From Gammaproteobacteria bacterium (GTDB lineage: Bacteria; Pseudomonadota; Gammaproteobacteria; Eutrophobiales; Eutrophobiaceae), in the NCBI GenBank assembly GCA_965205955.1, contig OZ242192.1, positions 2,376,796 to 2,440,795 of the forward strand: a stretch of DNA of 64,000 bases, written 5' to 3'. Positions 18,579 through 39,429 of this stretch are shown here, in pieces. The notes under the pieces were generated by a model. The model was given only the letters and a program-made list of their open reading frames with translations. It made no database searches and had not been told where the DNA came from. Both the position numbers and the translations under genes were made by a program. Position 1 is the stretch's first letter. Each line of letters begins with the position of its first letter.

Positions 18579-18581
18579 CGT

Positions 18582-20567: not shown

Positions 20568-20660
20568 TAATTGCTCCCGGAAAATGTTTGAATCAACTAT
20601 TAATTTAATACTTTAATAATTTTTCTTATTTGTATCAAATTATTTAATTTTCTCCATTAA

Positions 20661-21648: not shown

Positions 21649-22800
21649 TCTCCGGGGGCGGGAACGTCTCCTCCCGAACTTGTCGGGCGGGAGGAGGCTT
21701 TGGAGCAGGCTCGCATTCTGTTTGGCAGGGTCAAACTTGGGCGTTCTGGAAAGAGCATGCTGCTTACCGGCTTGCGCGGTGTCGGTAAAACCGTTCTGTT
21801 GAACCGGATGGAAAAAATGTCTCAGTCCGAAGGATATCGGTCCATTAATATCGAGGCGTCCGAAGACAAGCCGCTTGCTTCCCTGCTGGTTCCCTCTTTG
21901 CGGAAACTGCTTTTTGACTTGGACAGGATGGAGGGCGCGGGCAAAAAAGTCCGCCGCGCTCTGGCGGTTTTGCTGGGTTTTGTCGGCGCCGTCAAAGTGT
22001 CTGTAGGGGATTTGAGTATCGGTCTGGAGCTGGAACCGGAACGCGGAACGGCGGATAGTGGGGATATGGAGGTCGATTTGCCGGACTTGTTCACGGTTAT
22101 TGCCGAAGCCGCGCAGGAAAGAGGAACGGCAGTCGCCATTCTTATTGATGAAGTGCAATACTTGGAGAAATCCGAGTTTGGCGCTCTTATAATGGCGATG
22201 CACAAGATGCAGCAGCGTCAGTTGCCACTGGTTCTTATCGGCGCCGGTCTACCTGTTTTGCCGGGTCTTGCGGGCAATATAAGATCGTATGCGGAACGGC
22301 TATTCGATTTTCCGCAGGTGGGCGCTTTGTCCGAGGAAGACGCCGATATGGCTTTGCAGAAGCCGGTTCAGGAAAAAGGAGTCAGTTTTGAATCCGCCGC
22401 TTTAAGGGAGATTTTTAGATGGGCGCGCGGATACCCTTATTTCATTCAGGAGTGGGGCCATCAAGTGTGGAATCAGGCCGAGGTTTCGCCGATCACGCTG
22501 GCCGTCGTGCAGGCGGCCTCACAAACCGTAACCCTCCGTCTTGACAAGAATTTTTTCCGTGTCCGGTTTGACCGACTGACTCCAAGAGAAAAAGAGTTTC
22601 TGCGGGCGATGGCTGAGGTTGAGGGCGACAACAAGCGCACCAATGATGTTGCGTCTTTCCTGGGATTGCCGATTACAAGGGTGGGGCCCGCACGCGCAAA
22701 CCTGATTAACAAGGGCATGATATACAGCCCGTCACACGGGTATCTGGCTTTTACCGTGCCGTTGTTTGGCGAGTTTATGCGGCGGGCGATGCCGGATTGA
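21625..22800 (+). CDS. AAA+ ATPase of the archaeal-type ATPase family (PF01637-like) with a C-terminal winged-helix domain (DUF234-like)
   Basis: FSPGAGTSPPELVGREEALEQARILF; Walker A LTGLRGVGKT; Walker B AILIDEVQYLE; C-terminal RLTPREKEFLRAMAEVEG. An alternative start is at 21634. Confidence 0.7.
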   Translation: MEVMENPFSPGAGTSPPELVGREEALEQARILFGRVKLGRSGKSMLLTGLRGVGKTVLLNRMEKMSQSEGYRSINIEASEDKPLASLLVPSLRKLLFDLDRMEGAGKKVRRALAVLLGFVGAVKVSVGDLSIGLELEPERGTADSGDMEVDLPDLFTVIAEAAQERGTAVAILIDEVQYLEKSEFGALIMAMHKMQQRQLPLVLIGAGLPVLPGLAGNIRSYAERLFDFPQVGALSEEDADMALQKPVQEKGVSFESAALREIFRWARGYPYFIQEWGHQVWNQAEVSPITLAVVQAASQTVTLRLDKNFFRVRFDRLTPREKEFLRAMAEVEGDNKRTNDVASFLGLPITRVGPARANLINKGMIYSPSHGYLAFTVPLFGEFMRRAMPD

Positions 22801-22827: not shown

Positions 22828-25800
22828 TCACACCGCCGCCCACGCATCCGCCATCAATTCCGCCTGTTCCAGCACCCTGTCGGCTGCCAGTTTCTGCTCA
22901 TCGGGCGGATAGCCGTATTTTTTCAGCAGCCGTTTAACGACGGTTCTCAGCTTTGCCCGTGCGCTCTCTTTTATCGTCCAGTCAATTGAGGTGTTCTTTT
23001 TCACGCTCTCGGCAAGGGTTTGCGCAAGCGCCCGCAAAGTGTCATCGGTCATCACTTCTTTTGCGCTCGCATTCATCGCCAGCGCGTCATAAAACGCGAC
23101 TTCATCCTCGGACAGCCCCATATCAACCGCCCGTTCATCGGCCGTTCTGATCTCTTTGGCCATCAGGATCAACTCCTCGATCACCTGCGCCGCCGTCAGC
23201 AGATTGTTTTTGTATCTCCGGATCGCATCCTCGAGCATCTCGGAAAACCTTCTGCTTTGCGCGAGGTTCTTTCGCGTTCGGGTCTGTATCTCATCGGCGA
23301 GGATTTTTTTGAGCAGTTCCAGCGCGAGGTTTTTGCGCTGCATTCCGCGTATCTCCTCGAGGAAATCATCGGACAGGATCGATATGTCGGGCTTTTTGAT
23401 TCCGGCCGCGTCAAAAATATCAATCACGCCGTCCACCACCACCGCCCGGTCAACGATCTGCCGGATTGCGCTTTCCATCTCCGCCCCGCTTACGCCGCTG
23501 CCGTCCCGTTCAAATTTTGTCAGCCGCGCCTTTACCGCCTGAAAAAATCCGACCTCCGCCTTTATCCCCATCGCACGCGGATCGGGAACCGAAAGCGCAA
23601 ACGCCTTCGACAGCAGCACGACCTCACGGGTAAACCTTTCCTTACCGTCCTCAAGACCGAGAATATATTCCTCGGCCTCCAGAATCAGCCTCATCTTTTC
23701 TCCGGCTTTGGCATCGGCGCGGAAGTATTGCCTGTAATCAAACCTGCCAAACATGGCGGCGACCACATCGTATTTTTCCAGCATCTTCGTAACCGCTGTT
23801 TCCTGCTCAAACGCCGGCGTTCCGCCGCCACCGTTTTTCGTGTATGCGCCCAGCGCCCGCTTCAAATCCGAGGCGATGCCAATATAGTCAACCACCAGTC
23901 CGCCGGGCTTGTCCTTGTAAACCCGGTTCACGCGGGCGATTGCCTGCATCAGGTTGTGTCCGCTCATGATCTTGTCAACATAGATGGCGCCCAGACACGG
24001 CGCATCAAAACCCGTCAGCCACATATCGCGCACAATCACCAGTTGCAACGGATCGGTCGGATCCTTGAATCGTTCCCCGAGCGCTTTCCGCTCCGACTTC
24101 GTGGTCGCGTGTTTGTGCCACTCGGCGGGGTCGCTCGAGGATGAGGTCATCACCACCTTTATTGCGCCCTTGTCTTTATCGTCATCGTGCCATTGCGGAC
24201 GCAGGGCGGTTATCTCAGCATACATCTCCACCGCAATGCGGCGGCTCGTGGCGACTATCATCGCCTTGCCTTCAAAGGCTTCCCGCCTGGTTTCAACGTG
24301 GCGCACAATATCCGCCACAACGGTTTTGATGCGGTCCTTGTGCCCGATAATCGCTTCCTGTTTCGTCCATTTGGCCTTGGCTTTTTCGATTGCGGTCGCC
24401 TCCTCGCTTTCGGTTATCTGCTCGATCTCGGCGTCCAGTTCTTCCTTCTCTTCCTGTTTGAGATGCACTTCGACAAGACGCGACTCATAGTAGATGGCCA
24501 CGGTCGCCTTGTCTGTAACCGCCTGCTCGATGTCGTAGACATCTATGTAGTTGCCGAAAACCGCCGGCGTTGAGATGTCTTCTTTCTCAATAGGAGTTCC
24601 GGTAAATCCGATGAAAGAAGATTCGGGAAGGGCATCTCTCAGGTATTTGGCAAAACCGTATTTTGTCCTCACCCCGTCTTTGACAAAATGGGTTTTTGCC
24701 CCGAATCCGTACTGGCTGCGATGCGCTTCGTCGGCGATGACAACGATATTCTTTCTATCCGATAGCAGTTCAAAATTTTCATTTCCTTCTTCAGGTGAAA
24801 ACTTCTGAATGGTCGAAAACACGATGCCGCCGCCCGCCGTTTTCAAAAGCCGCTTCAAATGCTCGCGGCTTTCCGCCTGCTTCGGCTCCTGGCGCAGCAG
24901 ATTTCTGCCCGCCGCAAAGGCCCCGAACAGCTGATCATCGAGATCGTTGCGGTCGGTAATCACAACGATGGTAGGGTTTTCCATTTCCCGATTGACAACC
25001 AGCAGTCCGGCATAAAAAACCATCGCAAGCGATTTTCCGCTGCCCTGCGTGTGCCACACAACGCCCGCCTTGCGGTCTCCTTTCGGCTGATCTTTGACGC
25101 CGGGCAGTCCGTATTTTTGCGGATCTTCCTCTACGGGCAAGCTGACCCTCTTTCCCCCGTGGGATGCTCTTATTGTGGATTCAACCGCTTTTTTAACCGC
25201 ATGGTATTGATGATAGGCGGCGATTTTCTTGATAGTGATGACTTTCGTCATGCTACCACCCTCTCTTCCGTCTCTCCCAGAGGGAGAGAAACTTTTTTGA
25301 GGCAGGGTGTTTTCAATTTTTTGGAGGACTTCCTGTATATTGTTCAGCAGGTCTTTGTTTTTAAATCGCAGGACGGTATTTCCGAGACTTTTCAGAAATT
25401 TGTCTCTTTTTGCGTCTTCTTGTGTCTCCGTATTGTGGACTTCACCGTCAAGTTCAATGATCAGTTTTTCGGAGTGGCAATAAAAGTCGGCGATATAATG
25501 CCCTATTTGGTGCTGTCTCCTGAATTTCAATCCGTTAAACCTTTTATTTCTAAGCAACTCCCAAAAAATTTCTTCCGTTTCGGTCTGCTTTTCCCGTAAC
25601 TCCTTCACCCGCTCAATCATCCCCGCAAACCGCATCCCCGCCCGATAATGCCCCTCCTCACTCTCCCCACCATTCCCAATCCCCCTCCTCTCCCTCTGGG
25701 AGAGGCCGGGAGAGGGTATCAACGGAGTTGATTCAGCAGGAATCAACTCCGTTGATTTCTCAAACACGGTAAAGTGCCGGATCAAATCAATCAGCACATT

Positions 25801-26514
25801 CGGGCGCAGCATTCCCCTGATAACAGTTTCAAGCCAGGGCGTTGTCGCAGGGTCTTCCCTTTCACCGTCCACGGTTTTCCAGGCCATAAAGCGGTTCCAG
25901 CCCGCCGTCAGTGAACCGGCCCTGGCATCGAGTCCGTCCGAGGCCACGAGCACACCGTTATAGCAGAACAGACTCGGTATCGTTTCTTTGTAGTTTTGCA
26001 GTTGATCGAACGCCTTTTGAACGGTTGCCTGTTCATCGGTCGGGTTTTTCAATTCAATCACCGCCATCGGCAGGCCGTTTATGAACACGACAACATCGGG
26101 GCGCTTGGTGGTGTTGTTTTCGGTAACCGTGAACTGATTGCAGACTGCAAGGTTGTTGTTGTGCGGATTTTTAAAGTCAATCAGCCGGACTCTCGCGCCG
26201 ACCGTTTCGCCGTCCTTTTGGTACTCTTCGGCGACACCTTCGACCAGCATTCGATAGAACTCCTGATTGCTTGCAATCAGGTTGTGACCGGAAAGGGAAA
26301 GCACCTGCCGTATCGCCTGCTGCCGCACACCGTTTGGAACCTTCGGATTAAGATTGTCAATCGCGGTTTTGAGGCGGTTGCGCAAAACCACATCGGCAAC
26401 GCCGTCTCTTTCGGTTTCCTGTTGTTCGGGGGGAATGTAGGCGTAACCCTGCTTTTCAAGCAGTTCTACCGCAAACTTTTCCACGTCCGATTCGTAGAGA
26501 GCGGTCATGTGCAA
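22828..26514 (-). CDS. hsdR: type I restriction enzyme R subunit HsdR, with a roughly 165-aa in-frame DUF559 insertion
   Basis: 1228 aa. The N-terminal nuclease/HsdR-N region runs ...LIDLIRHFTVFE. The SF2 motor has the AAYHQYHAV, GSGKS and DEAH-like motifs, and a C-terminal helical domain follows. Between aa 255 and 422 lies FWELLRNKRFNGLKFRRQHQIGHYIADFYCHSEKLIIELDGEVHNTETQEDAKRDKFLKSLGNTVLRFKNKDLL, a complete DUF559 (Vsr-like endonuclease fold) module. Confidence 0.9.
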   Translation of the reverse strand: MHMTALYESDVEKFAVELLEKQGYAYIPPEQQETERDGVADVVLRNRLKTAIDNLNPKVPNGVRQQAIRQVLSLSGHNLIASNQEFYRMLVEGVAEEYQKDGETVGARVRLIDFKNPHNNNLAVCNQFTVTENNTTKRPDVVVFINGLPMAVIELKNPTDEQATVQKAFDQLQNYKETIPSLFCYNGVLVASDGLDARAGSLTAGWNRFMAWKTVDGEREDPATTPWLETVIRGMLRPNVLIDLIRHFTVFEKSTELIPAESTPLIPSPGLSQRERRGIGNGGESEEGHYRAGMRFAGMIERVKELREKQTETEEIFWELLRNKRFNGLKFRRQHQIGHYIADFYCHSEKLIIELDGEVHNTETQEDAKRDKFLKSLGNTVLRFKNKDLLNNIQEVLQKIENTLPQKSFSPSGRDGREGGSMTKVITIKKIAAYHQYHAVKKAVESTIRASHGGKRVSLPVEEDPQKYGLPGVKDQPKGDRKAGVVWHTQGSGKSLAMVFYAGLLVVNREMENPTIVVITDRNDLDDQLFGAFAAGRNLLRQEPKQAESREHLKRLLKTAGGGIVFSTIQKFSPEEGNENFELLSDRKNIVVIADEAHRSQYGFGAKTHFVKDGVRTKYGFAKYLRDALPESSFIGFTGTPIEKEDISTPAVFGNYIDVYDIEQAVTDKATVAIYYESRLVEVHLKQEEKEELDAEIEQITESEEATAIEKAKAKWTKQEAIIGHKDRIKTVVADIVRHVETRREAFEGKAMIVATSRRIAVEMYAEITALRPQWHDDDKDKGAIKVVMTSSSSDPAEWHKHATTKSERKALGERFKDPTDPLQLVIVRDMWLTGFDAPCLGAIYVDKIMSGHNLMQAIARVNRVYKDKPGGLVVDYIGIASDLKRALGAYTKNGGGGTPAFEQETAVTKMLEKYDVVAAMFGRFDYRQYFRADAKAGEKMRLILEAEEYILGLEDGKERFTREVVLLSKAFALSVPDPRAMGIKAEVGFFQAVKARLTKFERDGSGVSGAEMESAIRQIVDRAVVVDGVIDIFDAAGIKKPDISILSDDFLEEIRGMQRKNLALELLKKILADEIQTRTRKNLAQSRRFSEMLEDAIRRYKNNLLTAAQVIEELILMAKEIRTADERAVDMGLSEDEVAFYDALAMNASAKEVMTDDTLRALAQTLAESVKKNTSIDWTIKESARAKLRTVVKRLLKKYGYPPDEQKLAADRVLEQAELMADAWAAV
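25252..25756 (-). mobile_element. in-frame DUF559 endonuclease-like module inside hsdR, bounded by inverted 19-bp hairpin elements
   Basis: Hairpin A (25271-25289) is tctctccc-aga-gggagaga. Hairpin B (25687-25705) is cctctccc-tct-gggagagg, roughly the reverse complement of A. An adjacent 16-bp perfect hairpin, ATCAACGGAGTTGATT-cagcagg-AATCAACTCCGTTGAT, lies at 25718-25756. The DUF559 coding sequence lies between A and B. Confidence 0.45.
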
Positions 26515-27749
26515 TTTTCCCAGAGCGACTTCACCGGCAGCGCATACAGGTTTTCGCCGAAACTCAACACGCTGTCACCGCAATACAGCAACGCGCCGCC
26601 GGCAAAACGCGCGCCCGTCGCGTCTTTGAGTTTGCGCAGCCCTTTGAAGTCCGCGCTCGTTACCGTGCCGGACGCCTTTACTTCTACACACGCCAAAGCG
26701 GTTGCGCCCCGTTGTATGACAATATCGACTTCGCTTCCGGCCCGGTCTCTGAAATGATAAAACGTATGGCGTTGACTATGTGCGCTCGCCTGTCGCCGCA
26801 GTTCCTGCAAAACAAATGTTTCCAGAATATGGCCGAACAATGACCGGTTGCCCGACAGGGTGGCTCGATTCAGGTTGAGCAAGGCGCAGATTACTCCCGT
26901 ATCGCCGAGGTGTATCTTTGGCGTTTTGACCAGCCGTTTCATGTAATTGCCGTGCCATGCGGGCGTTCTCTCCAGCAGAAACATCTTCTCGAGCAAGATC
27001 AGGTAACTGCGAATTGTCAGCCGGCTCAGTTGGAATGAAGACGCCAGACGGTTCACATTCAGAAGCTGTGCGGTGTGCGCCGCCGCCAGTTCGAGCAATC
27101 GAGGCAGGGTTTCAAGAGAATGAATCTCCGCAATCATCGGCGCATCTCTTTCAACCAGGGTTTCAATGTAGGTCTGATACCAGTTTGCCCGCCGTGCTGC
27201 CGAGCGTTGCAGCGCCGCCGGATAACCGCCCGCCACAACCCGGTCGATAATCTGCTCACCGCCCGGCGCGTCCTGGCGAATAGTGAAATTCGGAGCAAAC
27301 ATCGAATCCAGCAAGGTCGGCGGGGTTTGTTCAAGCTCGCTCTGTGAAAAAGGATGCAGCCTTATGATATCCGTCCGACCGGCAAGCGATTCTTTTATCC
27401 GCACCATTTGCAGCAGGTTCACCGAACCGGTCAATATAAAACGCCCCGCTTCACGGTTGCGGTCAACCGACAGCTTGATTGCGGGAAACAGCCCGGGGGC
27501 CAACTGCGCCTCATCCAAAATGACCCGTTCCGGCAGGGTGTTGACAAACCCGGCCGGGTCTTCCACGGCGTAACTGCGCGTGCTTTCATCATCGAGGGTG
27601 AAGTATTCGTAGCCCGCCGGCTTGCCAATCATCCGGGCAAATGTGGTCTTGCCGCACTGACGCGGCCCCTGTATCAGCACAACGGGGGAATCCTGCAATG
27701 CTTCCTGCAAGCGTGGGGCGGCATGGCGGGGGTAGATGGTGTTGTCCAT
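26505..27749 (-). CDS. AAA ATPase with a C-terminal DUF4143 domain (ATP-binding protein common in defence islands)
   Basis: Walker A VLIQGPRQCGKTTFARMIG; Walker B RVILDEAQ; 414 aa. The gene overlaps the hsdR start, suggesting an operon. Confidence 0.75.
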   Translation of the reverse strand: MDNTIYPRHAAPRLQEALQDSPVVLIQGPRQCGKTTFARMIGKPAGYEYFTLDDESTRSYAVEDPAGFVNTLPERVILDEAQLAPGLFPAIKLSVDRNREAGRFILTGSVNLLQMVRIKESLAGRTDIIRLHPFSQSELEQTPPTLLDSMFAPNFTIRQDAPGGEQIIDRVVAGGYPAALQRSAARRANWYQTYIETLVERDAPMIAEIHSLETLPRLLELAAAHTAQLLNVNRLASSFQLSRLTIRSYLILLEKMFLLERTPAWHGNYMKRLVKTPKIHLGDTGVICALLNLNRATLSGNRSLFGHILETFVLQELRRQASAHSQRHTFYHFRDRAGSEVDIVIQRGATALACVEVKASGTVTSADFKGLRKLKDATGARFAGGALLYCGDSVLSFGENLYALPVKSLWENCT

Positions 27750-27754
27750 GGCGT

Positions 27755-27892
27755 GGCTGATTGTTAGTCAAGTATGCGGCTAATTGTTAGTTTAGGGTAT
27801 GGCTGATTGTTAGTGTGGAGTGCGGCTGATTGTTAGTCAAGTATACGGCCAATTGCAAGCTCAGGGGGTGGATGATTGCAAGATCAGGGGGG
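27755..27892. repeat. six tandem 23-bp repeats in the promoter/5' region of the DUF4143-ATPase and hsdR operon
   Basis: The units are GGCTGATTGTTAGTCAAGTATGC, GGCTAATTGTTAGTTTAGGGTAT, GGCTGATTGTTAGTGTGGAGTGC, GGCTGATTGTTAGTCAAGTATAC, GGCCAATTGCAAGCTCAGGGGGT and GGATGATTGCAAGATCAGGGGGG. They begin 6 bp upstream of the ATG at 27749. On the minus strand each unit carries a TTGACT (-35-like) element. Confidence 0.7.
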
Positions 27893-27951
27893 CTTTCTAT
27901 CTTTGGGTCGTTCTACTGCGAGTTCTTCAACATCGGATTCGTGGCGGGCAG

Positions 27952-28803
27952 TTATTTCGACTTGTCAGCCAGGGGACGCGGATTTTTCAAGCCTTTTTTC
28001 TCGTCGGATTTCAGTTTTCTCGCCACTTTCTTGACATCTTCTTCGGGAGGCAGTTTTTCCGGTTGAATGCCGCGCTCTATCAGGGTCTTCCTTACGCTTT
28101 CGTTACTGGTGATGTGCTCATCGGATATTTCCTTTTCGCTGTGCATACGGTTTTTATCGACGTTGAATATCGTAATCTCCGTGGCAAAGTCTTTCGCCTT
28201 GAGAATGATGGTCGGGGCAAAATCCGCCAAAGCCCGGTTTTTCGGAACCTGCCATTTGTCTTTCATCTGTTCGGTGGTGTAACCGAACAATGCCTTGTCG
28301 CCTTTGGAGCGGATAATGCCGAAGTTTCGGTCGCTTCTCGTTTGTTCATAGATGACACCGGACAGCTCTTTTTCGGTGTCCGCCAGTTTTCGGCGAGCGG
28401 ACACCCTTTCGGCTTCCAGCATTTTCTGTTGGATAATCTCGAACTTTCTGGTCTGAGTGGCAAAGTAGGTTTGGGCTAAGGCGATTTCTTCCTTGCGCGG
28501 GTCGCCGTTTTGGGCGATGAGGTAGCAGGCGTAGCGGGTGAGCATGATGTCGGCCACTTCCCGTTGGCTGCCGGAGCCCAGGGAGACCATTTTGCTGGCG
28601 TCAACGAAATGGTCGGAAATTGTATGATTTGAGACCTCACAGGCGATTTTGGCTTTGTTGGCAACCTGTAAGAAGTTTCGCCAGTCTGTATAGCCCAGCA
28701 GACGCTGAAGGTCGCGGGCGAGCCAGAATTCAACACCGTTTTCGGTTTGGTTGGCGTGGGATTCAAAGTCTTTGGTGAGGGATTGTATGATTTCGGTTTT
28801 CAT
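27952..28803 (-). CDS. dinD: DNA-damage-inducible protein D (DinD/KilAC-domain family)
   Basis: VEFWLARDLQRLLGYTDWRNFLQVANKAKIACEVSNHTISDHFVD...LGSGSQREV...LTRYACYLIAQNGDP matches the E. coli DinD pattern. Confidence 0.7.
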   Translation of the reverse strand: MKTEIIQSLTKDFESHANQTENGVEFWLARDLQRLLGYTDWRNFLQVANKAKIACEVSNHTISDHFVDASKMVSLGSGSQREVADIMLTRYACYLIAQNGDPRKEEIALAQTYFATQTRKFEIIQQKMLEAERVSARRKLADTEKELSGVIYEQTRSDRNFGIIRSKGDKALFGYTTEQMKDKWQVPKNRALADFAPTIILKAKDFATEITIFNVDKNRMHSEKEISDEHITSNESVRKTLIERGIQPEKLPPEEDVKKVARKLKSDEKKGLKNPRPLADKSK

Positions 28804-28966
28804 TTTGGGGTTCCGATGGTTAAATGAGAATTGTGTCCGTGAATGGTTGTTATTTTACATTATAGGGGGTGGGTTCCCAAAACTGCAGTTTCGAGGTGGT
28901 AGACTTCGCCCTTATCAGAGGGTTCGACAGGTATGGTATCTTTACAAGTGGTGAGCAATCAAGAAT

Positions 28967-30280
28967 ATGATGAATAGCAACAAGGGAGGAAAAATGCGTG
29001 CCTTGCAGGATACATTTGGTCTTTTGGCAGACAAATTACTTTTGATGGAAGGAAATCCTAGCGCTTCTTGGGAAAGAAGTGCGGCAGACCTGATTCCACA
29101 GTTAATTCATATTCTTATCCAAGAGAAGTTCCCAGAGAATAGGAAGACAAAGCCACCTTTGATTTTTTCCGCGATTTCGGAGGATGAGAAAATTTTCCAT
29201 CCTTTCCGAAAACTTAAATTTCAGCTCATTCATAGTGAGTCGTTCACTATTCGCTCAGATAAAAAATTACATGTGGACCAAAAACTCGCCATTTTCACTA
29301 TCCCTATGCTGTATTCAGTTCCTGAATTTTCCCATCAATTGTCACCACGCACCCAAAAAAATCTTTCAGATTCTCCAAATCAGGATCTTGAAACTTCTGA
29401 CCTGTTGCGTTTTGAACATCCTATTGATCCAAGTGAAGTAAAGGAGGTTGCCATTGAGTTTACGGTACAAGGACATCTGGGGGGTGGCTTTTGCACATTC
29501 ATTTATGAAAATCCTTTTGATGAAAATCCACACAAAAAACTTACTCTGAACGAATGGTTGGAACAACCCGTTCTATCGGTAAACGGGCATATGTTCACAA
29601 TAGAAGAAATTATCAAGGAAGTGAGAAACAAAATCGCAGTACATCGGTCTGCTCCAGAAAGCATTAACAAGAAATCATTTATTTACAATACGAGATACAT
29701 TAACGCTTGCGGGGCTTATTGGTCTTATTTTATTTTCTTCTGTGCGCTCCATATCATCACTATAATTCAACAAAAGATAAAAACTGAAATGCGACTCGAT
29801 ATTGATGATAATTTTGCAAAAATTGCTGAATCGAAAAGACCCGATCTAACCACTTTTGGATGGGAAACTAAAGATTGGGGGGGGATAGAATCTTATCTTG
29901 TTCTTTCTGATAATGTTGAATTTATCGCCAATGAGGATATGTCAAAAAACACAACCAAGATATCGTTTTTCTCTTTCAGATTAGAGAGTCAAATGGGACT
30001 ACAGGTTTACTCCATCCCTAGCGTGTTTTTTAGTTTGAAAGCGCAAAAAGAAAAGGAAAGCATAGATGAAGAGAATTGTTTATATTTTAATTTGAAGGAA
30101 AAGAAATGTGGTTTTGGTCTGCATTTCAGAACCACTGCCGATGCGTGGTGTGAATTCGTCAGGGATGAAAAGAATATATTTACGGCAAGGCTTGTCACGT
30201 TCACCGATTATCCCATAAAGGGGAGTATATTCTATAATGACGTTAAAAATACCATGCGCATATTATTTAGCTTTTTGTAA
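28967..30280 (+). CDS. hypothetical protein, 437 aa, AT-rich, with no recognisable motif; the only plus-strand gene in the R-M island
   Basis: Long intact ORF in a roughly 33% GC segment (28.8-31.7 kb), convergent with the DUF3644 gene. No Walker, nuclease or HTH motif was recognised by eye. Confidence 0.45.
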   Translation: MMNSNKGGKMRALQDTFGLLADKLLLMEGNPSASWERSAADLIPQLIHILIQEKFPENRKTKPPLIFSAISEDEKIFHPFRKLKFQLIHSESFTIRSDKKLHVDQKLAIFTIPMLYSVPEFSHQLSPRTQKNLSDSPNQDLETSDLLRFEHPIDPSEVKEVAIEFTVQGHLGGGFCTFIYENPFDENPHKKLTLNEWLEQPVLSVNGHMFTIEEIIKEVRNKIAVHRSAPESINKKSFIYNTRYINACGAYWSYFIFFCALHIITIIQQKIKTEMRLDIDDNFAKIAESKRPDLTTFGWETKDWGGIESYLVLSDNVEFIANEDMSKNTTKISFFSFRLESQMGLQVYSIPSVFFSLKAQKEKESIDEENCLYFNLKEKKCGFGLHFRTTADAWCEFVRDEKNIFTARLVTFTDYPIKGSIFYNDVKNTMRILFSFL

Positions 30281-30782
30281 AATCTAATCAAGGGAATGCT
30301 GCACGAGTTGTCATACCGCAATGAAAATGTCATATTGATAACGTATCATCTTCTGCCCTTCGTTGCTCCATTGAAGTTGTTGACGTGTCGCTATCCACTT
30401 CAACCCACCGCACCTCATGGCCACCATGAGAGATATGCAGATTGCTATCCAACCATTCACGTATTTCCTATCGTTATGGTATCCGGCACAGGGGTGAGAA
30501 ACAGTCGTTCAATTCGTCGCCGCTTCTGTGCCTTCATAGTCGCAAAAACTCCGCGTGGATGAGTCCTGATAGCAGCCTCCTTTATCGTCATGTTCTTCTC
30601 CATAACACATTCGCAGATTTCAACACGCTTCATTTCTGCTATACTTACATTCTGTCCTCTTGTGGTATTCCATGCTTCATATTGAAGCACAACTAAGGGG
30701 GCTTTTTCACGTTGTCTTAATACGACATTTTCATTGTGGTATGACAGTTAACTACATAATTCCCAAATATTTTGTCATGATG

Positions 30783-31754
30783 CTAAGTATATTCTGATCT
30801 ATTGTTTTCACAGTGATTTTTCACGAACGTTAACCATGAATGATACCAGTACCATGTTTTGGCAACTTTTGTTCCAAATCCTTTTGATGGATTTTTTGCA
30901 TTTTCTTTTTGCCATAATTTCGTATGTTGATGTATTTTGAATTTGTTAAATCCATTTCTTTGCATTTCTTTGCAAATTTCACCTGGCAAATATTTCATCT
31001 TTTCCTTCTCTATGACATATTCCTTTTTAAGCCCTTTTGCTATATCAGAATCTGGCGAAATGAACTCAATCACTCTATCCGCTTGTCCTTTTCGATTAGC
31101 CGTTCTTAAGACAAATAAAACTCTGTATGAAAACCTACTATCATTGAAATATCCCTCCGACAAACCTTGATCAAAATCTTGAATATAAGAAGAGATATTT
31201 TGGGGCAAATCTTTGTAATCACGTAAGTCAGCGACTTGACCTTCGCTCAGAGAAGAAAATTGTAGGCTAAAGGACAGGTGTTTTTCGATGCCATCTTTCT
31301 TTGGAAATAATTTTTTAAGATATGTATTGTAATTCAAACAACAGGATTGAAAACGAGCATTTAAAAAATCATCGATTCTTGTTGTCATTCTATGTTCTAT
31401 TTCGTGTCTTAGCCCAATTAAAAATTTTAAATTTAATGTCGTAATTTTGTCAATTGGAGATTTTTCACTATCCAAGCATTTCTCCAATTCCCAGTATTTA
31501 TAGGCATTTTTTTTTGTAGTGGAAAATTTTCTCCGCCTTCCATTTATTTTAAAATATTTGTATTCTATATTCTTGTCATGATAATAGGCATGTAGCAAAT
31601 AAGTCCAAGCAATAATTGAAAGAACGATGAATGACTCTGATTTAAATTGCATATTTGGGTTGTTGAATATTTGAACGGCCGCCAGCATGCCCTCTTTTGA
31701 CTTGCGAAGCTGTTCATTCTTTATAGAGCCAAATTTTCTCGTTCTGCTAGCCAT
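30783..31754 (-). CDS. DUF3644-like protein, commonly found next to hsdS
   Basis: The N-terminus MLAAVQIFNNPNMQFKSESFIVLSIIAWTYLLHAYY fits the DUF3644 N-terminal pattern. The gene overlaps the hsdS stop by 8 bp. Confidence 0.5.
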   Translation of the reverse strand: MASRTRKFGSIKNEQLRKSKEGMLAAVQIFNNPNMQFKSESFIVLSIIAWTYLLHAYYHDKNIEYKYFKINGRRRKFSTTKKNAYKYWELEKCLDSEKSPIDKITTLNLKFLIGLRHEIEHRMTTRIDDFLNARFQSCCLNYNTYLKKLFPKKDGIEKHLSFSLQFSSLSEGQVADLRDYKDLPQNISSYIQDFDQGLSEGYFNDSRFSYRVLFVLRTANRKGQADRVIEFISPDSDIAKGLKKEYVIEKEKMKYLPGEICKEMQRNGFNKFKIHQHTKLWQKENAKNPSKGFGTKVAKTWYWYHSWLTFVKNHCENNRSEYT

Positions 31755-32961
31755 GATATGAAAATGGACTTATTCTCGCTTTTCCACTCATCAACTTCGG
31801 CAACAAAATATCGCGCAGTTTTTTGAGCGTGCGGATTTGAGATTTATTCTTCCGATTTTTATCAAAAACCGATTCTACAGTATCTTGAAATTTATAAACT
31901 AATTCATGCGGATACTTGGGAAAATCAATCGATACTAAATTAGTCTGATTTATTTTCGGTTGTACTGCCCCAGTAATGTATCTCTCAATATTTAATTTCA
32001 AAAGAAAGTGCCAGATAAAAAAGTTATCGTAAGGTTTTTTTGCTTTAAGCACATGGGTATGATTATTCACCCAAAACTTTCCACTAGTATATTGTAAAAC
32101 AGGATACCCTTCACCTGCCTTAACCGTCCCATCTTCGGCCATTAGAATGTATTCGCCTTCGAAAATATAGTCGTTTATGTAATCCATAACTTGAGCAGCT
32201 CCGTAGTATGGATACAATGAATCTCCATCCTTCATTTTTTGCCTTTCTATTTTGGAAAGCGGGATTCTTTTGCTGTCAAAAATCTCTACCACATCCCCTA
32301 GCTTTCCAAACTCCCACCCTTCATTCGCATCTTCCACAAACCACTTGCGAAACAATGCCTGTGCCATATCTTCAAGTGTTTTGTTCTGGCGGTGGAGCAG
32401 CTCTATTTTGTCGTCCAGCGATGATAACACTTCGGCAATGGCTTTTTGTTCGGGAAGTGGGGGGAGAAAAAATTTGTAATCTTTAATTGTTTTTGGTGAT
32501 GTGTGCTTTATTGATGTTCCACTTGCTGCGCCAACTATAAACCAGTGATATTCACCAGTACGCATTAGCCAATAAATAAAATTTCTATCAACCTCTTTTG
32601 ATTCAAATTGTAATAACCCTATCCGCTGATTGTGTAAATACATTTCATCGTTTTTATTATTTTTGGGAACTTTTGCTGAAAAACCAAGAGTGTCTCCTTG
32701 TTTGCTCAAATCAGTCATTGTTACAATAACATCACCTTCTTTCAGAATATAATCTTGTGGAATTTCACCTCTAAAATATTTTAACTTTGATGATTTGAAT
32801 CCTCCACCTATATGAAAATTTCCAGGTGTAACCAAAATATTGTTGTTTGTTTCATCTGTAATATATTTCCCCTTGAAAGCATAGCCGTGTTTTATATCAA
32901 CTAAATCCCCCAACCTAACCTCGCGCCACCCGTGCCGTTCTTTTTGCTCCATCCCGCTCAT
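31747..32961 (-). CDS. hsdS: type I restriction-modification specificity subunit HsdS, with two target-recognition domains
   Basis: Conserved central and C-terminal coiled-coil LPPLPEQKAIAEVLSSLDDKIELLHRQNKTLEDMAQALFRKWF, with two TRD-like halves; 404 aa. Confidence 0.85.
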   Translation of the reverse strand: MSGMEQKERHGWREVRLGDLVDIKHGYAFKGKYITDETNNNILVTPGNFHIGGGFKSSKLKYFRGEIPQDYILKEGDVIVTMTDLSKQGDTLGFSAKVPKNNKNDEMYLHNQRIGLLQFESKEVDRNFIYWLMRTGEYHWFIVGAASGTSIKHTSPKTIKDYKFFLPPLPEQKAIAEVLSSLDDKIELLHRQNKTLEDMAQALFRKWFVEDANEGWEFGKLGDVVEIFDSKRIPLSKIERQKMKDGDSLYPYYGAAQVMDYINDYIFEGEYILMAEDGTVKAGEGYPVLQYTSGKFWVNNHTHVLKAKKPYDNFFIWHFLLKLNIERYITGAVQPKINQTNLVSIDFPKYPHELVYKFQDTVESVFDKNRKNKSQIRTLKKLRDILLPKLMSGKARISPFSYHG

Positions 32962-33284
32962 TGCTCCGAATATATCTGCTCTTTCGTCAACAGTGTTTTC
33001 GCTTTCTCTTCGATGTGCCGTCTCATCGGCGGGTAATCTACAAAGTTGAACACCTGCACATCCACCTTGTATGGCAACGAACTCTCATCAAACAAAGTCC
33101 ACAAACGGTCGGTGGTCGCTCCATCGATGTCGCCGTAAAGCACCAAGTCAATATCGGAATAACTTTTGTAGTTTCCCGTTGCCCTTGAGCCGAACAAGGA
33201 TGCTTTTTCAATGCCGGGGCAATGTTCGCGGAGAATTTTTGCGATACCGCCAATTTGCCGTGCGCTCAATCCATGCGTGGACAT
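32958..33284 (-). CDS. mntA: nucleotidyltransferase (MNT-domain antitoxin of a HEPN/MNT pair)
   Basis: GSRATGNYKSYSDIDLVLYGD carries the GS...D.D polymerase-beta NTase motif; 108 aa. Confidence 0.8.
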   Translation of the reverse strand: MSTHGLSARQIGGIAKILREHCPGIEKASLFGSRATGNYKSYSDIDLVLYGDIDGATTDRLWTLFDESSLPYKVDVQVFNFVDYPPMRRHIEEKAKTLLTKEQIYSEQ

Positions 33285-33288
33285 TGTC

Positions 33289-33702
33289 TCAGAACTGCTC
33301 TCCTAAAACTTCGTAAAGTTCTCCGAAACATGCAAGGTATCTTTTGCTGATCTGCTCTAACGCCTCCTCAAATTTTTTGAAGTCGTAGGTGTGGCTCATT
33401 TTATTACGCACATCCAACGCCGTCATCCAGCCCTCGCCGTCGTGTATGAGATTTGCGGCAATCGCCTCTTTGATAATGGCGCGGGGAGTAACCTGCCCAA
33501 ACACAACATTGTTGTATTCCAGATAGTCCTTTGCCGCCTTCCATGCAAGTTCCATACAGTATTCAAAGCGTTGGATCATGCCCTCTTTTTCCAACTGTGT
33601 CATAGACCCATCACTGTATTTTTCGTTGGCCTCTTGTAGAAGAGTGTATGCTCTACTGAAATTGTTAAAGCGATATTTCCAGCGCGGTTTTTCTTCGCTC
33701 AT
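33289..33702 (-). CDS. hepT: HEPN-domain nucleotidyltransferase substrate-binding protein (HepT-like toxin, HI0074 family)
   Basis: MSEEKPRWKYRFNNFSRAYTLLQEANEKY...RFEYCMELAWKAAKDYLEY...ALDVRNKMSHTYD is the HEPN Rx4-6H-like region. The gene lies 4 bp upstream of mntA. Confidence 0.75.
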   Translation of the reverse strand: MSEEKPRWKYRFNNFSRAYTLLQEANEKYSDGSMTQLEKEGMIQRFEYCMELAWKAAKDYLEYNNVVFGQVTPRAIIKEAIAANLIHDGEGWMTALDVRNKMSHTYDFKKFEEALEQISKRYLACFGELYEVLGEQF

Positions 33703-34231
33703 GTTCTGTTCTCCAGTCGTTAATGTCGGTAATCTGTAAATACATTCGCCGCTCACCGGCGCGAATAGAACGAACCCGTTCCAGAAGTTCCTTGAAATAA
33801 TCCCTACCAAAGACCCGCGTACCCTGCTTGAGCCGTTGGTCATTCATGGCAAAGCCTTCGATGATATATTCTTTCAAAACCTGAGTCGCCCAGATGCGAA
33901 ATTGTGTGGCACGCCTGGAGTTGACCCGATAGCCAACAGCAATGATGGCGTCGAGATTGTAGAACTTCGTTTTGTAACGCTTTCCATCTCCGGCAGTAAG
34001 TTCCAAAATGGAACTTACTGATTTTTCCGGCAATTCACCACTCTTAAAGATGTTTCCGAGATGCTTGGTTATGGCGGGCCTTTGAACCCCGAACAATCGC
34101 GCAATATTTTCCTGCGTCAGCCACAATGTCTCATCTTGTAGCGTAACCTCGAGCCGCACCTCACCGTGAGGCGTGGTGTAAAGGATAAAATCGGCATTGC
34201 CGGAGGACGGCGATTTATTTTTCATACTCAA
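33665..34231 (-). pseudogene. rhuM: virulence protein RhuM family (Fic/DOC-like), 3'-truncated at the hepT-mntA insertion
   Basis: LYTTPHGEVRLEVTLQDETLWLTQENIARLFGVQRPAITKHLGNIFKSGELPE...GYRVNSRRATQFRIWATQVLKEYIIEGFAMNDQRL...RRMYLQITDI matches the first roughly 180 aa of the roughly 330-aa RhuM proteins. It then diverges (NDWRTEHERRKTALEISL*) and overlaps the hepT start. Confidence 0.65.
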
Positions 34232-35891
34232 TTTTGCCCAGGTTCTCCAAGATCCGCTTGTTCAACTCCGCCTCTTCTTTTATCTGCCCTTCAAATTCCG
34301 CTTTGAGTGCGGTAAATCTCTCTTCAAAGTCAAAATCATCCTCGGTTTCCGCCAGCCCCACATAGCGCCCCGGACTCAGCACATAGTCCAACTCTGCGAC
34401 CTTTGCCGTCTTGACCGAGGCGCAAAAGCCGGGGATGTCTTGATATGGGATGCCCTCACCTTCTTTTCCTCTCTCAGAGGGAGAGGAAGGTTGGTGATCT
34501 TTTCCTTTCTCAGGGGAAGGTTGATGATCTTTTCCTCTCCCTTTGGGAGAGGCTAGGTGAGGGTCCCTCCTCCACTGGTGGTAGGTGTTGACAACCCTGG
34601 CTATATCTTCATCTGAAAACTCCCGGGTGCGGCGGTTGATCAAATGCCCCAACTCGCCCGCGTCTATGAACAGGATCTCATCCTGGCGTTTCCGGTCGCC
34701 GTTGTAGCCGTGCCGTTTGTTGGAGACAAACCACAGGCAGGCGGGGATTTGCGTGTTCAGGAACAGTTTTGCCGGCAGATTGACAACGCAGTCCACAATG
34801 CCGGCATCGATGATGTTTTTGCGGATGACGTCTTCGTTGGATGATTTGGAGGTGAGCGAGCCTTTTGACAGCACGAAACCGGCCACGCCTTTGGGCGAGA
34901 GGTGGTGTATGAAGTGCTGCACCCAGGCAAAGTTGGCGTTGCCGGTTGGCGGAATGCCGTATTTCCATCGGCTGTCGCCTTCTAATTGTTTGCCGCTCCA
35001 GTCGCTGTCGTTGAAGGGCGGGTTGGCGAGGATGAAATCGGCTTTCAAGTCGGGATGGGCGTTGTTCAGGAATGAGCCTTCGTTGTTCCATTTCACCTGC
35101 CCGCCGTCTATCTGGCGAATGGCCAGGTTCATCCGGCAGAGGCGGTAGGTGGTCTGGTTGCTCTCCTGTCCGTAGATGGAGATGTTGTCGATGTTGCCCT
35201 GGTGCTGTTTGACGAATTTCTCACTCATCACGAACATGCCGCCGCTGCCGCAGCAGGGGTCGAACACCCGGCCCTTGTACGGCTCTATCATTTCCACCAG
35301 CAGTTTTACAATCGAGCCCGGGGTGTAGAACTGGCCGCCTTTTTTGCCTTCGGTGAGGGCGAACTGGCCGAGAAAATATTCATAGACTTTGCCGAGCAGG
35401 TCTCTCGATTTCGCGGCTTCATCGCCGAGGGCGATGTTGCCGACCAGGTCGATCAACTCGCCAAGCGTTGCGGATGCGACGTTCGGCCTGGAGTATACTT
35501 TCGGCAGAATGCCTTTCAGGGTGTTGTTCTCTCTTTCTATGGCTTCCATGGATTCGTCTAAAATCTTGCCGATGGTTTCCTGTCTCGCTTGTGCTTTGAT
35601 GTGGCTCCATCTTGCGTTCGGCGGCACCCAGAAAACGTTTTCCGCTCTGTATTCGTCCGGGTCTTCGGCGTCGGCGTGTTGATATTCCCCTTCGCCGGCG
35701 GTGAGTCTGGCGTGCAGGGTTTCAAAGGAGTCGGAGATGTATTTGAGGAATACCAGGCCGAGCACAACGTGTTTGTATTCCGCTGCGTCTATGTTGTTGC
35801 GCAGCTTGTCCGCGGCTTTGAATAGCTGGTTTTCAAAATTGCCGGCTTTTTCGGCGTGGTTTTCGGTCGTGGTCTTGCTGTCGGTCAACAT
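34215..35891 (-). CDS. hsdM: type I restriction-modification DNA methyltransferase subunit HsdM (N6-adenine), with a low-complexity in-frame insertion
   Basis: HsdM N-domain AADKLRNNIDAAEYKHVVLGLVFLKYISD; SAM motif FDPCCGSGGMF; catalytic NPPFN; 558 aa. Inserted SPKGRGKDHQPSPEKGKDHQPSSPSERGKEGEG at 34458-34560. Confidence 0.9.
   Translation of the reverse strand: MLTDSKTTTENHAEKAGNFENQLFKAADKLRNNIDAAEYKHVVLGLVFLKYISDSFETLHARLTAGEGEYQHADAEDPDEYRAENVFWVPPNARWSHIKAQARQETIGKILDESMEAIERENNTLKGILPKVYSRPNVASATLGELIDLVGNIALGDEAAKSRDLLGKVYEYFLGQFALTEGKKGGQFYTPGSIVKLLVEMIEPYKGRVFDPCCGSGGMFVMSEKFVKQHQGNIDNISIYGQESNQTTYRLCRMNLAIRQIDGGQVKWNNEGSFLNNAHPDLKADFILANPPFNDSDWSGKQLEGDSRWKYGIPPTGNANFAWVQHFIHHLSPKGVAGFVLSKGSLTSKSSNEDVIRKNIIDAGIVDCVVNLPAKLFLNTQIPACLWFVSNKRHGYNGDRKRQDEILFIDAGELGHLINRRTREFSDEDIARVVNTYHQWRRDPHLASPKGRGKDHQPSPEKGKDHQPSSPSERGKEGEGIPYQDIPGFCASVKTAKVAELDYVLSPGRYVGLAETEDDFDFEERFTALKAEFEGQIKEEAELNKRILENLGKIEYEK
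34458..34560. repeat. three tandem roughly 36-bp in-frame repeats inside hsdM built from the CCTCTCCC-N3-GGGAGAGG hairpin element
   Basis: cctctctc-aga-gggagagg (34468-34486); cctttctc-agg-ggaagg, degenerate (34504-34520); cctctccc-ttt-gggagagg (34534-34552). The same hairpin family flanks the DUF559 insert in hsdR. Confidence 0.7.
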
Positions 35892-35899
35892 GGTTTCTC

Positions 35900-36175
35900 C
35901 AAAATGAGTGCCCTCAGGGGAAAGGCTTTATAGTAGCGTATTATGCTTGCCGGGTGGCAGGGTTAAAATTCACCGGGGCGCTTTTGAGAGGCTTTTTCTA
36001 TTTGTTTGCTGTGCAGCAATCAAACTTTTCCGGGTCGGATCCTATGCCGCACAAGGCCGGTCAATCATTTTGCCAGCCTGGCGGGGGGAGCAGCATTGTC
36101 GCCGTAGCGCACTATCTGTTTTTATTGCAGGACCTGCCGGCGTCAATATCAATGTATTGCCGGCATACTCTATCT
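35900..36175 (+). pseudogene. degenerate duplicate of the tauE promoter and 5' coding region, with an internal roughly 60-bp deletion
   Basis: 35911-36175 aligns with 42316-42640: ggggaaaggctttatagtagcgtattatg...gcaatcaaac..ttccggg..ggat..tatgc...ggcgggggg...cactatctgtttttattgcagg. ORF 35954..36211 reads QSNFSGSDPMPH...GGGSSIVAVAHYLFLLQDLP; TauE reads QSNTSGADFMLH...GGGIIIVPALHYLFLLQGFP. Confidence 0.6.
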
Positions 36176-36224
36176 ATGCGTACCTTCCCCGGTGTTTGTG
36201 ATTATCGGTGAGTGCCGGGTATGG

Positions 36225-38081
36225 TCAGGCGGCGCGGGCTTCCAATAGTTGGCGGCTGAATGAGTTGTTGTCGGAAGTGGTCATTACCAGATCCTCCTGT
36301 GCCCGCGTCATGCCTACGTAGAGTAAGCGGGCGTCTTCTTCCACCCTATCCTCCTTGTCTCCCATATAGCCGACGCCGACAATAATGACCCGTGAGAACT
36401 CCAGTCCCTTGCTGCTGTGCAGCGTTATCAGAGGTACCCGGTCTTCCGCCGGATTATACGCGCTTTTGCTTTTTTTGTCTTTGAGTTGCAAACAGGGAAT
36501 GCCGGCGTTTTCTACTGCACGATGCAATTTGTCGCCCTGATAGTGGCTCAAGTACAGTACCGCCATATCCGCCCAGGCGATCTTGTCTTCATGCCAGCGT
36601 TGTAAACAACTTACAGTGTAATCCAGTTCTTCCGTGAAATTGCCCACTCGCCGTATTTCCGGGTCGGGGCCGCGATTGCCCGCCGCTTCCGGCGCAATCA
36701 GCGGGATATGGTCATCATCCGCGTTTTGCGGTTTGAGATAGTGTGCCGCGAAACGGTAGGCAAAGCGCAATATCTCGCGCGTGTTGCGGTAATTCAGCCG
36801 TAATATGGTGGTGCGCCCCGTGGCTTTAATGCCTACGCTGGCCAGGCTGAAACCCAATCCGGTGCGGGGTTTGTAGATGGATTGCGCATCATCGTACAGC
36901 AGCAGCAATGAATCTGTTTCCGGGTCCACCATCTGCACCACCAGTTTAAGCCAACTCTCTTCAAAGTCGTGGCCTTCGTCAATCATCAGCGCGCCGTATT
37001 GCGCCCGCGGGATCTGGCCTTGATCGACGGCATGGATAACGGTTTCCACTAACTTTTCCACATAAGATTTACCGAATGCCGGCGGGGCCACATGATAGGC
37101 CCTTAACTGCTCTGCGCACCAGTCGTGAAAGTGATATACCTGCACCTGCTGGTCTATACCCTTGGCTTCGATGAACGTGCGCAGCTTTGCCGCCAGCGTG
37201 ATGTTAAAACACAGAACCAGTATGGGCTTTTGCATCAGGGCAGCGAGGTACTGACAGCGATAGCCGAGTATCAGGGTCTTGCCGGAGCCCGCCACTCCGT
37301 GAATGACGCGGTGGCCTTCGCCCAGACTGCGCGCCAGTTGCTCCTGCTGGATGTCCATGATTTTGATGATGTCCGGCAGGGCTTCTGTGATGTCGGTGTC
37401 GTCGTCGGTTGCGGCGAACAGGCTCTCTTGCCTGCCGGTCACGATGCGTATTTCCGGGAATAGATACCAGCGTATGCGGTCAATCTGCGGCAGGGTCAAT
37501 GTGCCGCCAAACCGGTAGGTGAACATGTTCCAGAGTTTTTCCTGGAAGGCTTCCGCATCCGCATCCTTGCCGATGTCGTCCTGGTACAGCATCAGGTGAT
37601 CCGGCAGCAGGATTTCTCTCTCCGCATCCGGTGCGGCTCTGTGCATGCGTTGACGGCTAATGTTGGTAAAGACCACGCCGCAACCCCAGGGCATAATCAG
37701 CTTGCCCCGGTGTGCGCCACCCGCCTGCTGCAACAGGGGGTCGCCGGACAGGGTATTGACTACACGGTATTGATACTGCCGTGCCTGCTCCAGTGGGTGG
37801 GCCTCGGTTACCAGCCCCTTTGCAGTCAGTATTTCTGCGGTTTTGGGTGTAAATTTTTTGATGGTTTCCATCTTCCAGTCCTTTACCTCCAGCAGCAACA
37901 GTCCCCGTGACGGGTGCAGGATAATAAAGTCGGGATAACGGCGCTTTTTGCCGACCGGGATGTCGTACCAGATCAGGTAATCATCTTCCAGAAACCGCTC
38001 CAAACGACGGGCCAGGCGTTTTTCGCCGGCCGTCATGCGCGCCAGGGTTTGGCGGTTCAGGGCAGGGATGATCTCGGCCAC
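36225..38081 (-). CDS. NERD-domain nuclease fused to an SF1 (UvrD-like) DNA helicase; Nhi-like candidate defence protein
   Basis: N-terminal NERD: YLIWYDIPVGKKRRYPDFIILHPSRGLLLLEVKDW. Helicase: VIHGVAGSGKTLILGYRCQYL (Walker A), LMIDEGHDF, and C-terminal motifs; 618 aa. Confidence 0.75.
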   Translation of the reverse strand: MAEIIPALNRQTLARMTAGEKRLARRLERFLEDDYLIWYDIPVGKKRRYPDFIILHPSRGLLLLEVKDWKMETIKKFTPKTAEILTAKGLVTEAHPLEQARQYQYRVVNTLSGDPLLQQAGGAHRGKLIMPWGCGVVFTNISRQRMHRAAPDAEREILLPDHLMLYQDDIGKDADAEAFQEKLWNMFTYRFGGTLTLPQIDRIRWYLFPEIRIVTGRQESLFAATDDDTDITEALPDIIKIMDIQQEQLARSLGEGHRVIHGVAGSGKTLILGYRCQYLAALMQKPILVLCFNITLAAKLRTFIEAKGIDQQVQVYHFHDWCAEQLRAYHVAPPAFGKSYVEKLVETVIHAVDQGQIPRAQYGALMIDEGHDFEESWLKLVVQMVDPETDSLLLLYDDAQSIYKPRTGLGFSLASVGIKATGRTTILRLNYRNTREILRFAYRFAAHYLKPQNADDDHIPLIAPEAAGNRGPDPEIRRVGNFTEELDYTVSCLQRWHEDKIAWADMAVLYLSHYQGDKLHRAVENAGIPCLQLKDKKSKSAYNPAEDRVPLITLHSSKGLEFSRVIIVGVGYMGDKEDRVEEDARLLYVGMTRAQEDLVMTTSDNNSFSRQLLEARAA

Positions 38082-38168
38082 AGGGATACCGCCCGGCTCA
38101 GGCGCAAGCGGCGGGCGGCGCCGCCGGAATGCGTGGTTGTTCGGGCAGGCGTTGAGGCATGTTTCGCA

Positions 38169-39389: not shown

Positions 39390-39429
39390 GTTCTTTAATT
39401 CGTTGTGTATGGGTCCATAATATATGGCG

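Follow-up and report, generated by a model that had tools for sequence, protein, structure and literature searches.

The window analysed here, a stretch of 64,000 nt on contig OZ242192.1 of a Gammaproteobacteria bacterium, contains a defence island at ~20.6–42.1 kb, the centre of which is the region under study. A type I restriction-modification (R-M) operon is found there on the minus strand and is complete, with hsdM, hsdS and hsdR all present together with embedded genes. Nested between hsdS and a DUF3644 gene on one side and dinD, a DUF4143 gene and hsdR on the other is ORF428 (28994–30280, plus strand), a gene for an orphan protein of 428 aa which, judging from its position, is probably defence cargo of some kind. 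The DUF3644 gene (30783–31754, minus strand) faces ORF428 across a spacer of 502 bp, measured between the two convergent stop codons. The original prediction for this DNA had treated both genes as AT-rich cargo of the R-M locus and as candidate defence components.

The mechanically called open reading frame (ORF), 28967–30280, is intact and was correctly placed in the original prediction; the length of 437 aa given there is probably nine residues too long. A GGGAGG Shine–Dalgarno sequence lies 5 nt upstream of the ATG at 28994, and two database copies, P0001 (ORF428 itself) and P0002 (one of its relatives, P0002–P0005), begin at the equivalent position; the product is thus most likely 428 aa. 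Ratios of nonsynonymous to synonymous substitution rates (dN/dS) are 0.42 against the 76%-identical P0002 and 0.26 against the 43%-identical P0003, with neighbouring genes at 0.25–0.38, and the frame is therefore under purifying selection. The G+C fraction (GC) is 0.375 in ORF428, 0.43 in the ORF428–DUF3644 spacer, 0.327 in DUF3644 and 0.371 in hsdS, against 0.515–0.527 in the flanks. An AT-rich segment beside neighbours of ~52% GC had been predicted and is present, but the figure of ~33% holds only for DUF3644, and 28800–31754 as a whole is at 0.372. Homologues of ORF428 all have a GC of 0.36–0.37; three of them are set in host DNA of 0.51–0.53, and the contig of P0005 (comparison locus L003; L-numbers denote fetched loci throughout) is at 0.41. 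ORF428 is a real gene, under selection and of foreign composition.

Comparison with a sister island, L085, delimits the variable part of the locus. Identity between the window and L085 is 96.9% over 23024–28891 and 97.2% over 34228–40127, and the differences are confined to 28892–34227. This variable AT-rich cargo block (28892–~34227) includes hsdS and an MNT-HEPN gene pair; the alien segment is thus real but larger than first proposed. The left boundary of the cassette falls at ~28891, where backbone identity with L085 stops, inside the divergent intergenic region between dinD and ORF428 (28804–28993). The first ~88 nt of that region are the conserved dinD upstream region, as judged from alignments, and a promoter-like site is predicted within it on the minus strand (28880–28852).

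Within the block, L085 shares only the hsdS–DUF3644 arrangement, with DUF3644 84% identical at the nucleotide level. The L085 sub-slot, from the DUF3644 stop to the dinD upstream region, is filled by a 2.1-kb cassette with a GC of 29–34%. Positions 9279–10962 of L085 constitute a minimal cyclic oligonucleotide-based antiphage signalling system (CBASS), made up of a 132-aa transmembrane (TM) effector and a CBASS oligonucleotide cyclase; the cyclase is annotated as a pair of ORFs (198 and 225 aa), which may reflect a frameshift, on a contig of 5x coverage. The corresponding sub-slot of the window (28892–30768) contains ORF428 and an element resembling a miniature inverted-repeat transposable element (MITE), in the exact position of the L085 CBASS cassette. 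A further island, L010, with a backbone ~90% identical to that of the window, carries in its slot an ORF6N protein (PDC-S05), an MNT-hsdS fusion, a PDC-S34-like protein and an FRG-TPR protein (PDC-S15). Given the slot contents of L085 and L010, ORF428 is positionally allelic to recognised defence genes, and the earlier proposal of cargo in a variable type I R-M slot is strongly supported.

Every member of the ORF428 family is located in or beside an R-M locus, and outside the window the gene recurs next to R-M genes in L001, L002/L004 and L003. L001 is a decayed copy of the window island in which dinD, ORF428, two MNT-HEPN pairs, NERD-UvrD and M78 have been retained and hsdR, DUF4143, DUF3644, hsdS and most of hsdM have been lost. 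In L001, ORF428 is bracketed by direct repeats of ~128 bp (9826–9953 and 11378–11505, 78% identical). Each repeat is made up of the 5′ end of dinD and the sequence upstream of it, leaving a truncated second dinD start downstream of ORF428, and they look like a recombination scar from cassette acquisition. The gene order in L003 is hsdS, an AbiJ/Abi_C HEPN gene and P0005. In L002 a type III methyltransferase–DUF6731–ResIII (mod-res) operon directly follows P0003; L004 represents this chromosomal site in a sister strain from the same sample. The flanks of L002 and L004 remain 95.5–98.5% identical as far as the start codon of the homologue of ORF428 (L002 position 10001, L004 position 5851); past it, identity falls to 68% and blastn then no longer detects any, the two proteins being ~50–55% identical. 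This is allele replacement, as known from defence hotspots.

Relatives of ORF428 are very few, the family consisting of five lineages among ~15 billion proteins. P0002 is 76% identical to ORF428 and P0003 42–43%; P0005, of 321 aa, is ~31% identical across the N-terminal half. P0004 is a fragment from a contig of 1x coverage, and because its gene runs on in another frame a fifth N-domain sequence could be obtained. Two word-indexed searches of 5.8 billion proteins, with a single sequence and with a profile, returned only P0001–P0005, and an exhaustive phmmer search of 1.84 billion cluster representatives returned P0002–P0005 and no further relatives. Likewise, no relative was detected in collections of genomes, metagenomes (scanned twice) and viral contigs, in plasmid and phage collections (tblastn) or, for the region as a whole, in E. 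coli genomes (megablast). The 84 fetched loci, 80 of them anchored on dinD, contained no further or remote relatives by tblastn or by hmmsearch on all ORFs. Two enzyme classes, the 2H-phosphoesterases and the PD-(D/E)xK nucleases, were considered and rejected, because the alignment, judged by eye, shows no conservation of their motifs over the five lineages.

The ORF had been described as lacking any recognisable motif, and indeed no library matches ORF428; the family is new to every library searched. Judged by its position, it is a reasonable candidate for a new defence gene. Mobilome signatures (transposase, integrase) and housekeeping annotation were likewise absent for ORF428 in all libraries searched.

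The MITE-like element next to ORF428 occupies most of the spacer that separates it from the DUF3644 stop; it is ~438 bp long (30309–30746) and is bounded by 28-nt terminal inverted repeats. These are 93% complementary and can be extended to ~40 nt; the pair is the only one of its kind in the window, where 0 would be expected by chance. The DNA of the element folds with a z of −5.3 and contains a 77-aa ORF (30457–30690, minus strand) without a significant family match. The element is missing from L001 and L085. No structured RNA was recognised in the spacer by Rfam at E up to 1, and no intrinsic terminator is predicted between the convergent ORF428 and DUF3644. ORF428 was considered as the transposase of the element and rejected, as the inverted repeats do not flank it.

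The proximity of this element bears on the possibility that ORF428 is a passenger without a defence role, that is, a selfish or addiction-type gene or the leftover of a mobile element in recombination-prone R-M loci. An adjoining MITE-like element, an extremely rare and patchy family and the scar-like direct repeats around ORF428 in L001 would all be consistent with such a gene, and more than half of embedded genes are without an assigned role according to Payne et al. (bioRxiv 10.1101/2024.01.29.577857). However, no library yielded a mobilome signature, the inverted repeats leave ORF428 outside, and relatives are absent from the plasmid, phage and viral-contig collections. Purifying selection across homologues of 43–76% identity argues against a passenger, as does the survival of ORF428 in L001 despite the loss of hsdR, hsdS, DUF3644 and most of hsdM. 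A non-defence passenger is thus quite unlikely.

The convergent DUF3644 gene is readily classified. Its product matches Pfam PF12358 over residues 16–197 (E 2.2e-56; 190.8 bits against a gathering cut-off of 27.6) and, in PADLOC, model PDLC04948 (PDC-S19) with E 5.4e-154, residues 1–321 aligning with profile positions 1–323 of 325. DUF3644 and hsdS share 8 nt, the ATG of the former running into the stop of the latter (ATGGCTAG), an arrangement also present in L085, and the start of hsdS in turn overlaps the MNT stop by 4 nt (ATGA); from these overlaps MNT, hsdS and DUF3644 are translationally coupled. Both the coupling of DUF3644 to hsdS and its convergence with the plus-strand ORF were therefore correctly predicted. 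The motif R115-H116-E-I-E-H120 is invariant in a 16-sequence alignment and agrees with the pattern Rx4-6H with a polar residue after R. Homologues number 5,359 at E up to 1e-5; the best 120 of these are 58–76% identical, and those with a source name span diverse phyla.

The family was placed in the HEPN superfamily in 2013 (as the EC042_2821 family) and was reported to occur in R-M system operons (PMC3710099). HEC-08, a DUF3644 protein, was shown to protect against phage, a protection that requires the histidine of the motif (bioRxiv 10.1101/2024.01.29.577857), and Ishtar proteins with DUF3644 or DUF4145 HEPN domains counter plasmids (bioRxiv 10.64898/2026.07.06.735840). The label 'uncharacterised' is thus inappropriate for a HEPN family recognised since 2013, catalogued as PDC-S19 and sharing its HEPN domain with HEC-08 and Ishtar. 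By sequence, DUF3644 is a HEPN defence candidate in its own right, catalogued before as PDC-S19, and a new instance only. Nor do ORF428 and DUF3644 form a pair, as had been implied: more than 5,000 homologues are known for DUF3644 and five lineages for ORF428, and the lack of ORF428 beside the DUF3644 gene of L085 shows that the one is not tied to the other.

These comparisons also bear on whether ORF428 could be an accessory partner, such as an antitoxin, immunity factor, regulator or sensor, of dinD, DUF3644, Abi_C or MNT-HEPN. In the window and in L001 it is divergent from dinD across a short shared intergenic region, and a HEPN-type gene is a neighbour in the window (DUF3644), in L003 (AbiJ-like) and in L001 (MNT-HEPN). 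However, ORF428 is not tied to dinD, because tblastn and hmmsearch found no relative in 80 other dinD-anchored loci; a role as obligate dinD partner was rejected on the same ground. L085 has both DUF3644 and dinD without ORF428, the 5,359 DUF3644 homologues far exceed the five ORF428 lineages, and L002 is without dinD or a recognisable HEPN neighbour. Additionally, R-M loci frequently contain HEPN genes in any case (PMC3710099). An accessory function is accordingly improbable, more so than a passenger.

Clues to the function of ORF428 itself come from conserved residues and predicted structure. In the alignment of five lineages the invariant residues (428-aa numbering) are F68-H69-P70, P174-F175, E187-W188-L189, T202, I206, K208, H217, S228, R234 and Y242. 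KEVRNKIAVHR is the best-conserved block; R-[N/D]-x4-H is present in four of the five lineages (RNKIAVH, RNKIAVH, RNKKTGH and RDKIKAH), and its histidine, H217, is invariant. The predicted architecture is an N-terminal helical domain bearing the motif, followed by a C-terminal beta-rich domain. In the N-domain model from AlphaFold2 (AF2), helices 2–20 and 26–41 are followed by an unmodelled insert of ~140 residues, a beta-hairpin (192–202), a helix (203–219) ending in R211-N212-x4-H217, a loop and a helix at 242–268. Residues 1–70 and 180–265 of this model have a predicted local distance difference test score (pLDDT) of 58–87. In the published description of HEPN domains, helix 3 ends with the motif, the arginine is followed by a polar residue, and inserts occur between helices 2 and 3 (PMC3710099); the N-domain model appears to match it. 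ORF428 may work like a HEPN protein.

On the reading preferred here, ORF428 would be a self-contained, horizontally exchanged single-gene cassette in a swappable slot between DUF3644 and dinD, encoding a rare effector of second-line defence that acts by abortive infection or as a toxin. Its divergent HEPN-like N-terminal domain would cleave RNA via R211/N212/H217 once triggered, and the C-terminal beta-rich domain (~290–428) would act as a sensor or regulator, a two-part logic also found in HEC-08, Ishtar and other HEPN proteins with DUF3644 or DUF4145. Taken as a whole, an exchanged cassette encoding a HEPN-like abortive-infection or toxin effector is quite possible, and is put forward tentatively. 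The narrower assignment, a HEPN-like RNase effector with a C-terminal sensor domain, is speculative and doubtful, although it deserves consideration.

Several results weigh against this reading. ORF428 is unmatched in Pfam (E up to 10), PHROGs (E up to 1) and NCBIfam (E up to 0.1), and comparison with 5,027 PADLOC models gave 0 families at E up to 0.01. Neither the full profile nor its conserved 95-column core matched any PDB sequence at E up to 10, and alignment with DUF3644 by hhalign gave a probability of 0.2%, indicating no relation. P0005, the most distant member, has ADEEGAH at the motif, with alanine replacing the arginine, and by our estimate an R[NDH]x3-5H string would arise by chance in about one protein in six of this size. 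The AF2 models were built from five sequences and are of low confidence, with a mean pLDDT of 46 for the full-length protein and of 54 for the N-domain (predicted template modelling score, pTM, 0.58); searched against the PDB with Foldseek, the models gave nothing below E = 2. The family is also tiny, and its context rests on four independent loci, three of which come from one sample. Because a profile match is the only hard evidence that could be tested and none was obtained, ORF428 is not filed as a HEPN member.

The same results leave room for a defence or abortive-infection effector that is not a HEPN RNase, with a new fold, action at the membrane through helix 240–258, or another active site. 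The R-M and slot context would fit such an effector equally well, and the sister slot of L085 holds a CBASS with a TM effector. The highest 19-residue Kyte–Doolittle mean in ORF428 is 1.69, at 240–258, just over the usual membrane-helix threshold of 1.6. R211 is absent from the residues invariant in all five lineages, and a profile link to HEPN was not found. On the other hand, helix 240–258 is modelled as a packed core helix (pLDDT 71–75) and is a single hydrophobic segment in mid-protein, and the longest-aligned structural matches of the ORF428 models are HEPN proteins. A non-HEPN effector, including one with the alternative active site that might be envisaged (H69 in FHP, E187-W-L, K208 and R234), is unlikely, if less so than a passenger or an accessory partner. 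In the most novel form of the idea, ORF428 would be the founder of a genuinely new immune family of single genes, unrelated to HEPN in fold and in trigger; the family would be rare and allele-swapped at fixed chromosomal hotspots in a narrow, uncultured bacterial group, and would exemplify the rare tail of the pan-immune system. This too is an unlikely prospect. The HEPN-like effector remains the preferred, tentative reading.

The remaining genes of the operon, all on the minus strand, divide into conserved backbone and variable cargo. hsdM (34215–35891; Pfam N6_Mtase and HsdM_N) belongs to the backbone and is 93–97% identical in nucleotide sequence to its counterparts in L010 and L085. Between hsdM and hsdS is a toxin–antitoxin-like pair (32958–33843), formed by a HEPN gene (33289–33843; Pfam NTase_sub_bind) and an MNT gene (32958–33284; Pfam Polbeta/NTP_transf_2). 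hsdS (31747–32961; Pfam Methylase_S) lies within the variable block, and its match with L010 and L085 is limited to the central ~180 nt. The dinD-like Bro-N gene (27952–28803; NCBIfam PRK11525, E 6e-109; PADLOC PDC-S13) is again conserved backbone, and 75 of the other fetched loci with a dinD hit contain no relative of ORF428. An AAA_14/DUF4143 ATPase gene (26505–27749; identified with Pfam and as PADLOC PDC-S01) is embedded upstream of hsdR (22828–26514; identified with Pfam), which carries an inserted DUF559 endonuclease-like domain. Upstream of hsdM are genes for a NERD-UvrD helicase and an M78-peptidase-like protein. An AAA_16 ATPase gene (21625–22800) is on the plus strand; ORF428 is the only plus-strand gene of the R-M operon but, contrary to the prediction, not of the island. 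The island is flanked by housekeeping genes for an SLT transglycosylase (18582–20567) and a TauE exporter (42429–43268).

The DUF559 (Vsr-like endonuclease) insert of hsdR extends over 25230–25759 (residues ~302–404), between the N-terminal nuclease domain and the SF2 motor, and has a reduced local GC of ~0.47. The insertion of ~480 nt is present in L085 and missing from the otherwise ~90%-identical hsdR of L010. In the spacer downstream of the dinD stop, which in the window separates DUF4143 from dinD, 23-nt tandem repeats (GGCTGATTGTTAGT...) are found in two copies in the window (27801–27846) and in three in L001 (8808–8881). A tandem array at 21036–21596, directly upstream of the AAA_16 ATPase gene, consists of 5.3 copies of a 106-bp unit with 95% matches, and related units occur at the same island edge in L001 and L010.

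The contig of L010 is labelled Ca. Poriferihabitaceae, with flanks (18500–20800) at 62–68% GC and an island at ~55%, and the closest dinD relatives are from metagenome-assembled genomes (MAGs) labelled Nitrospirales. The GC contrast in L010 and the dinD relatives suggest that the whole R-M island has been transferred between distant lineages. The names attached to the closest backbone and dinD relatives suggest sponge-associated MAGs. Elsewhere in the window there is a second AT-rich block (~52400–56950; GC 0.31–0.32 against ~0.5 around it), bordered by a sirohaem synthase gene and a UvrD/PD-(D/E)xK helicase-nuclease gene. It contains four tandem minus-strand genes for proteins of 342–354 aa each; one falls just short of the Pfam cut-off for glycosyltransferase family 8, and the other three have no Pfam match.

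Should ORF428 prove to protect against phages or plasmids, a new protein family would join the defence genes that ride inside R-M operons. Such nested defence genes, often HEPN toxins, are a well-known kind (PMC3710099; bioRxiv 10.1101/2024.01.29.577857), and the DUF3644 part of the locus adds nothing beyond one more PDC-S19 instance. If ORF428 is protective, its presence in one island and that of CBASS in a 97%-identical one would also be a clean natural case of cassette exchange at base-pair-defined junctions, and would favour positional allelism, compared between near-identical islands, over defence-island enrichment as the sharper predictor. The rarity of ORF428, with five lineages, limits its general impact; as an experimental target it is attractive, and also cheap, since at defined junctions it is positionally allelic to CBASS.

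Among known systems, the PADLOC phage defence candidates that Payne et al. (bioRxiv 10.1101/2024.01.29.577857) identified through guilt-by-embedding in loci of type I R-M, BREX, DISARM and Hma resemble ORF428 in its location inside a complete type I R-M operon, and three of these candidates (PDC-S01, PDC-S13 and PDC-S19) accompany ORF428. It differs in that it matches no model, is far below any abundance cut-off and is transcribed against the operon. The minimal HEPN toxins of MNT-HEPN pairs (PDB 7ae2, 8xdj, 1jog and 1ylm) gave weak structural scores from the low-confidence ORF428 models; ORF428 is three times larger, is without an adjacent MNT partner of its own and has no sequence similarity to them. 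Type I CBASS, consisting of a cyclase and a TM effector, fills the equivalent sub-slot in the 97%-identical island of L085, yet has no homology to ORF428, and its two-gene signalling on the operon strand contrasts with a single gene on the opposite strand. In the DUF3644/EC042_2821 family, the DUF3644 protein of the window is a full-length member with the invariant Rx4H motif; it matched only PDC-S19 models in PADLOC and is not placed with HEC-08. ORF428 is similar to this family, which includes HEC-08 and Ishtar, in architecture only, with a predicted helical N-domain containing R-polar-x4-H and a beta-rich C-domain, the motif of ORF428 being located ~100 residues further in, after an insert of ~140 residues.

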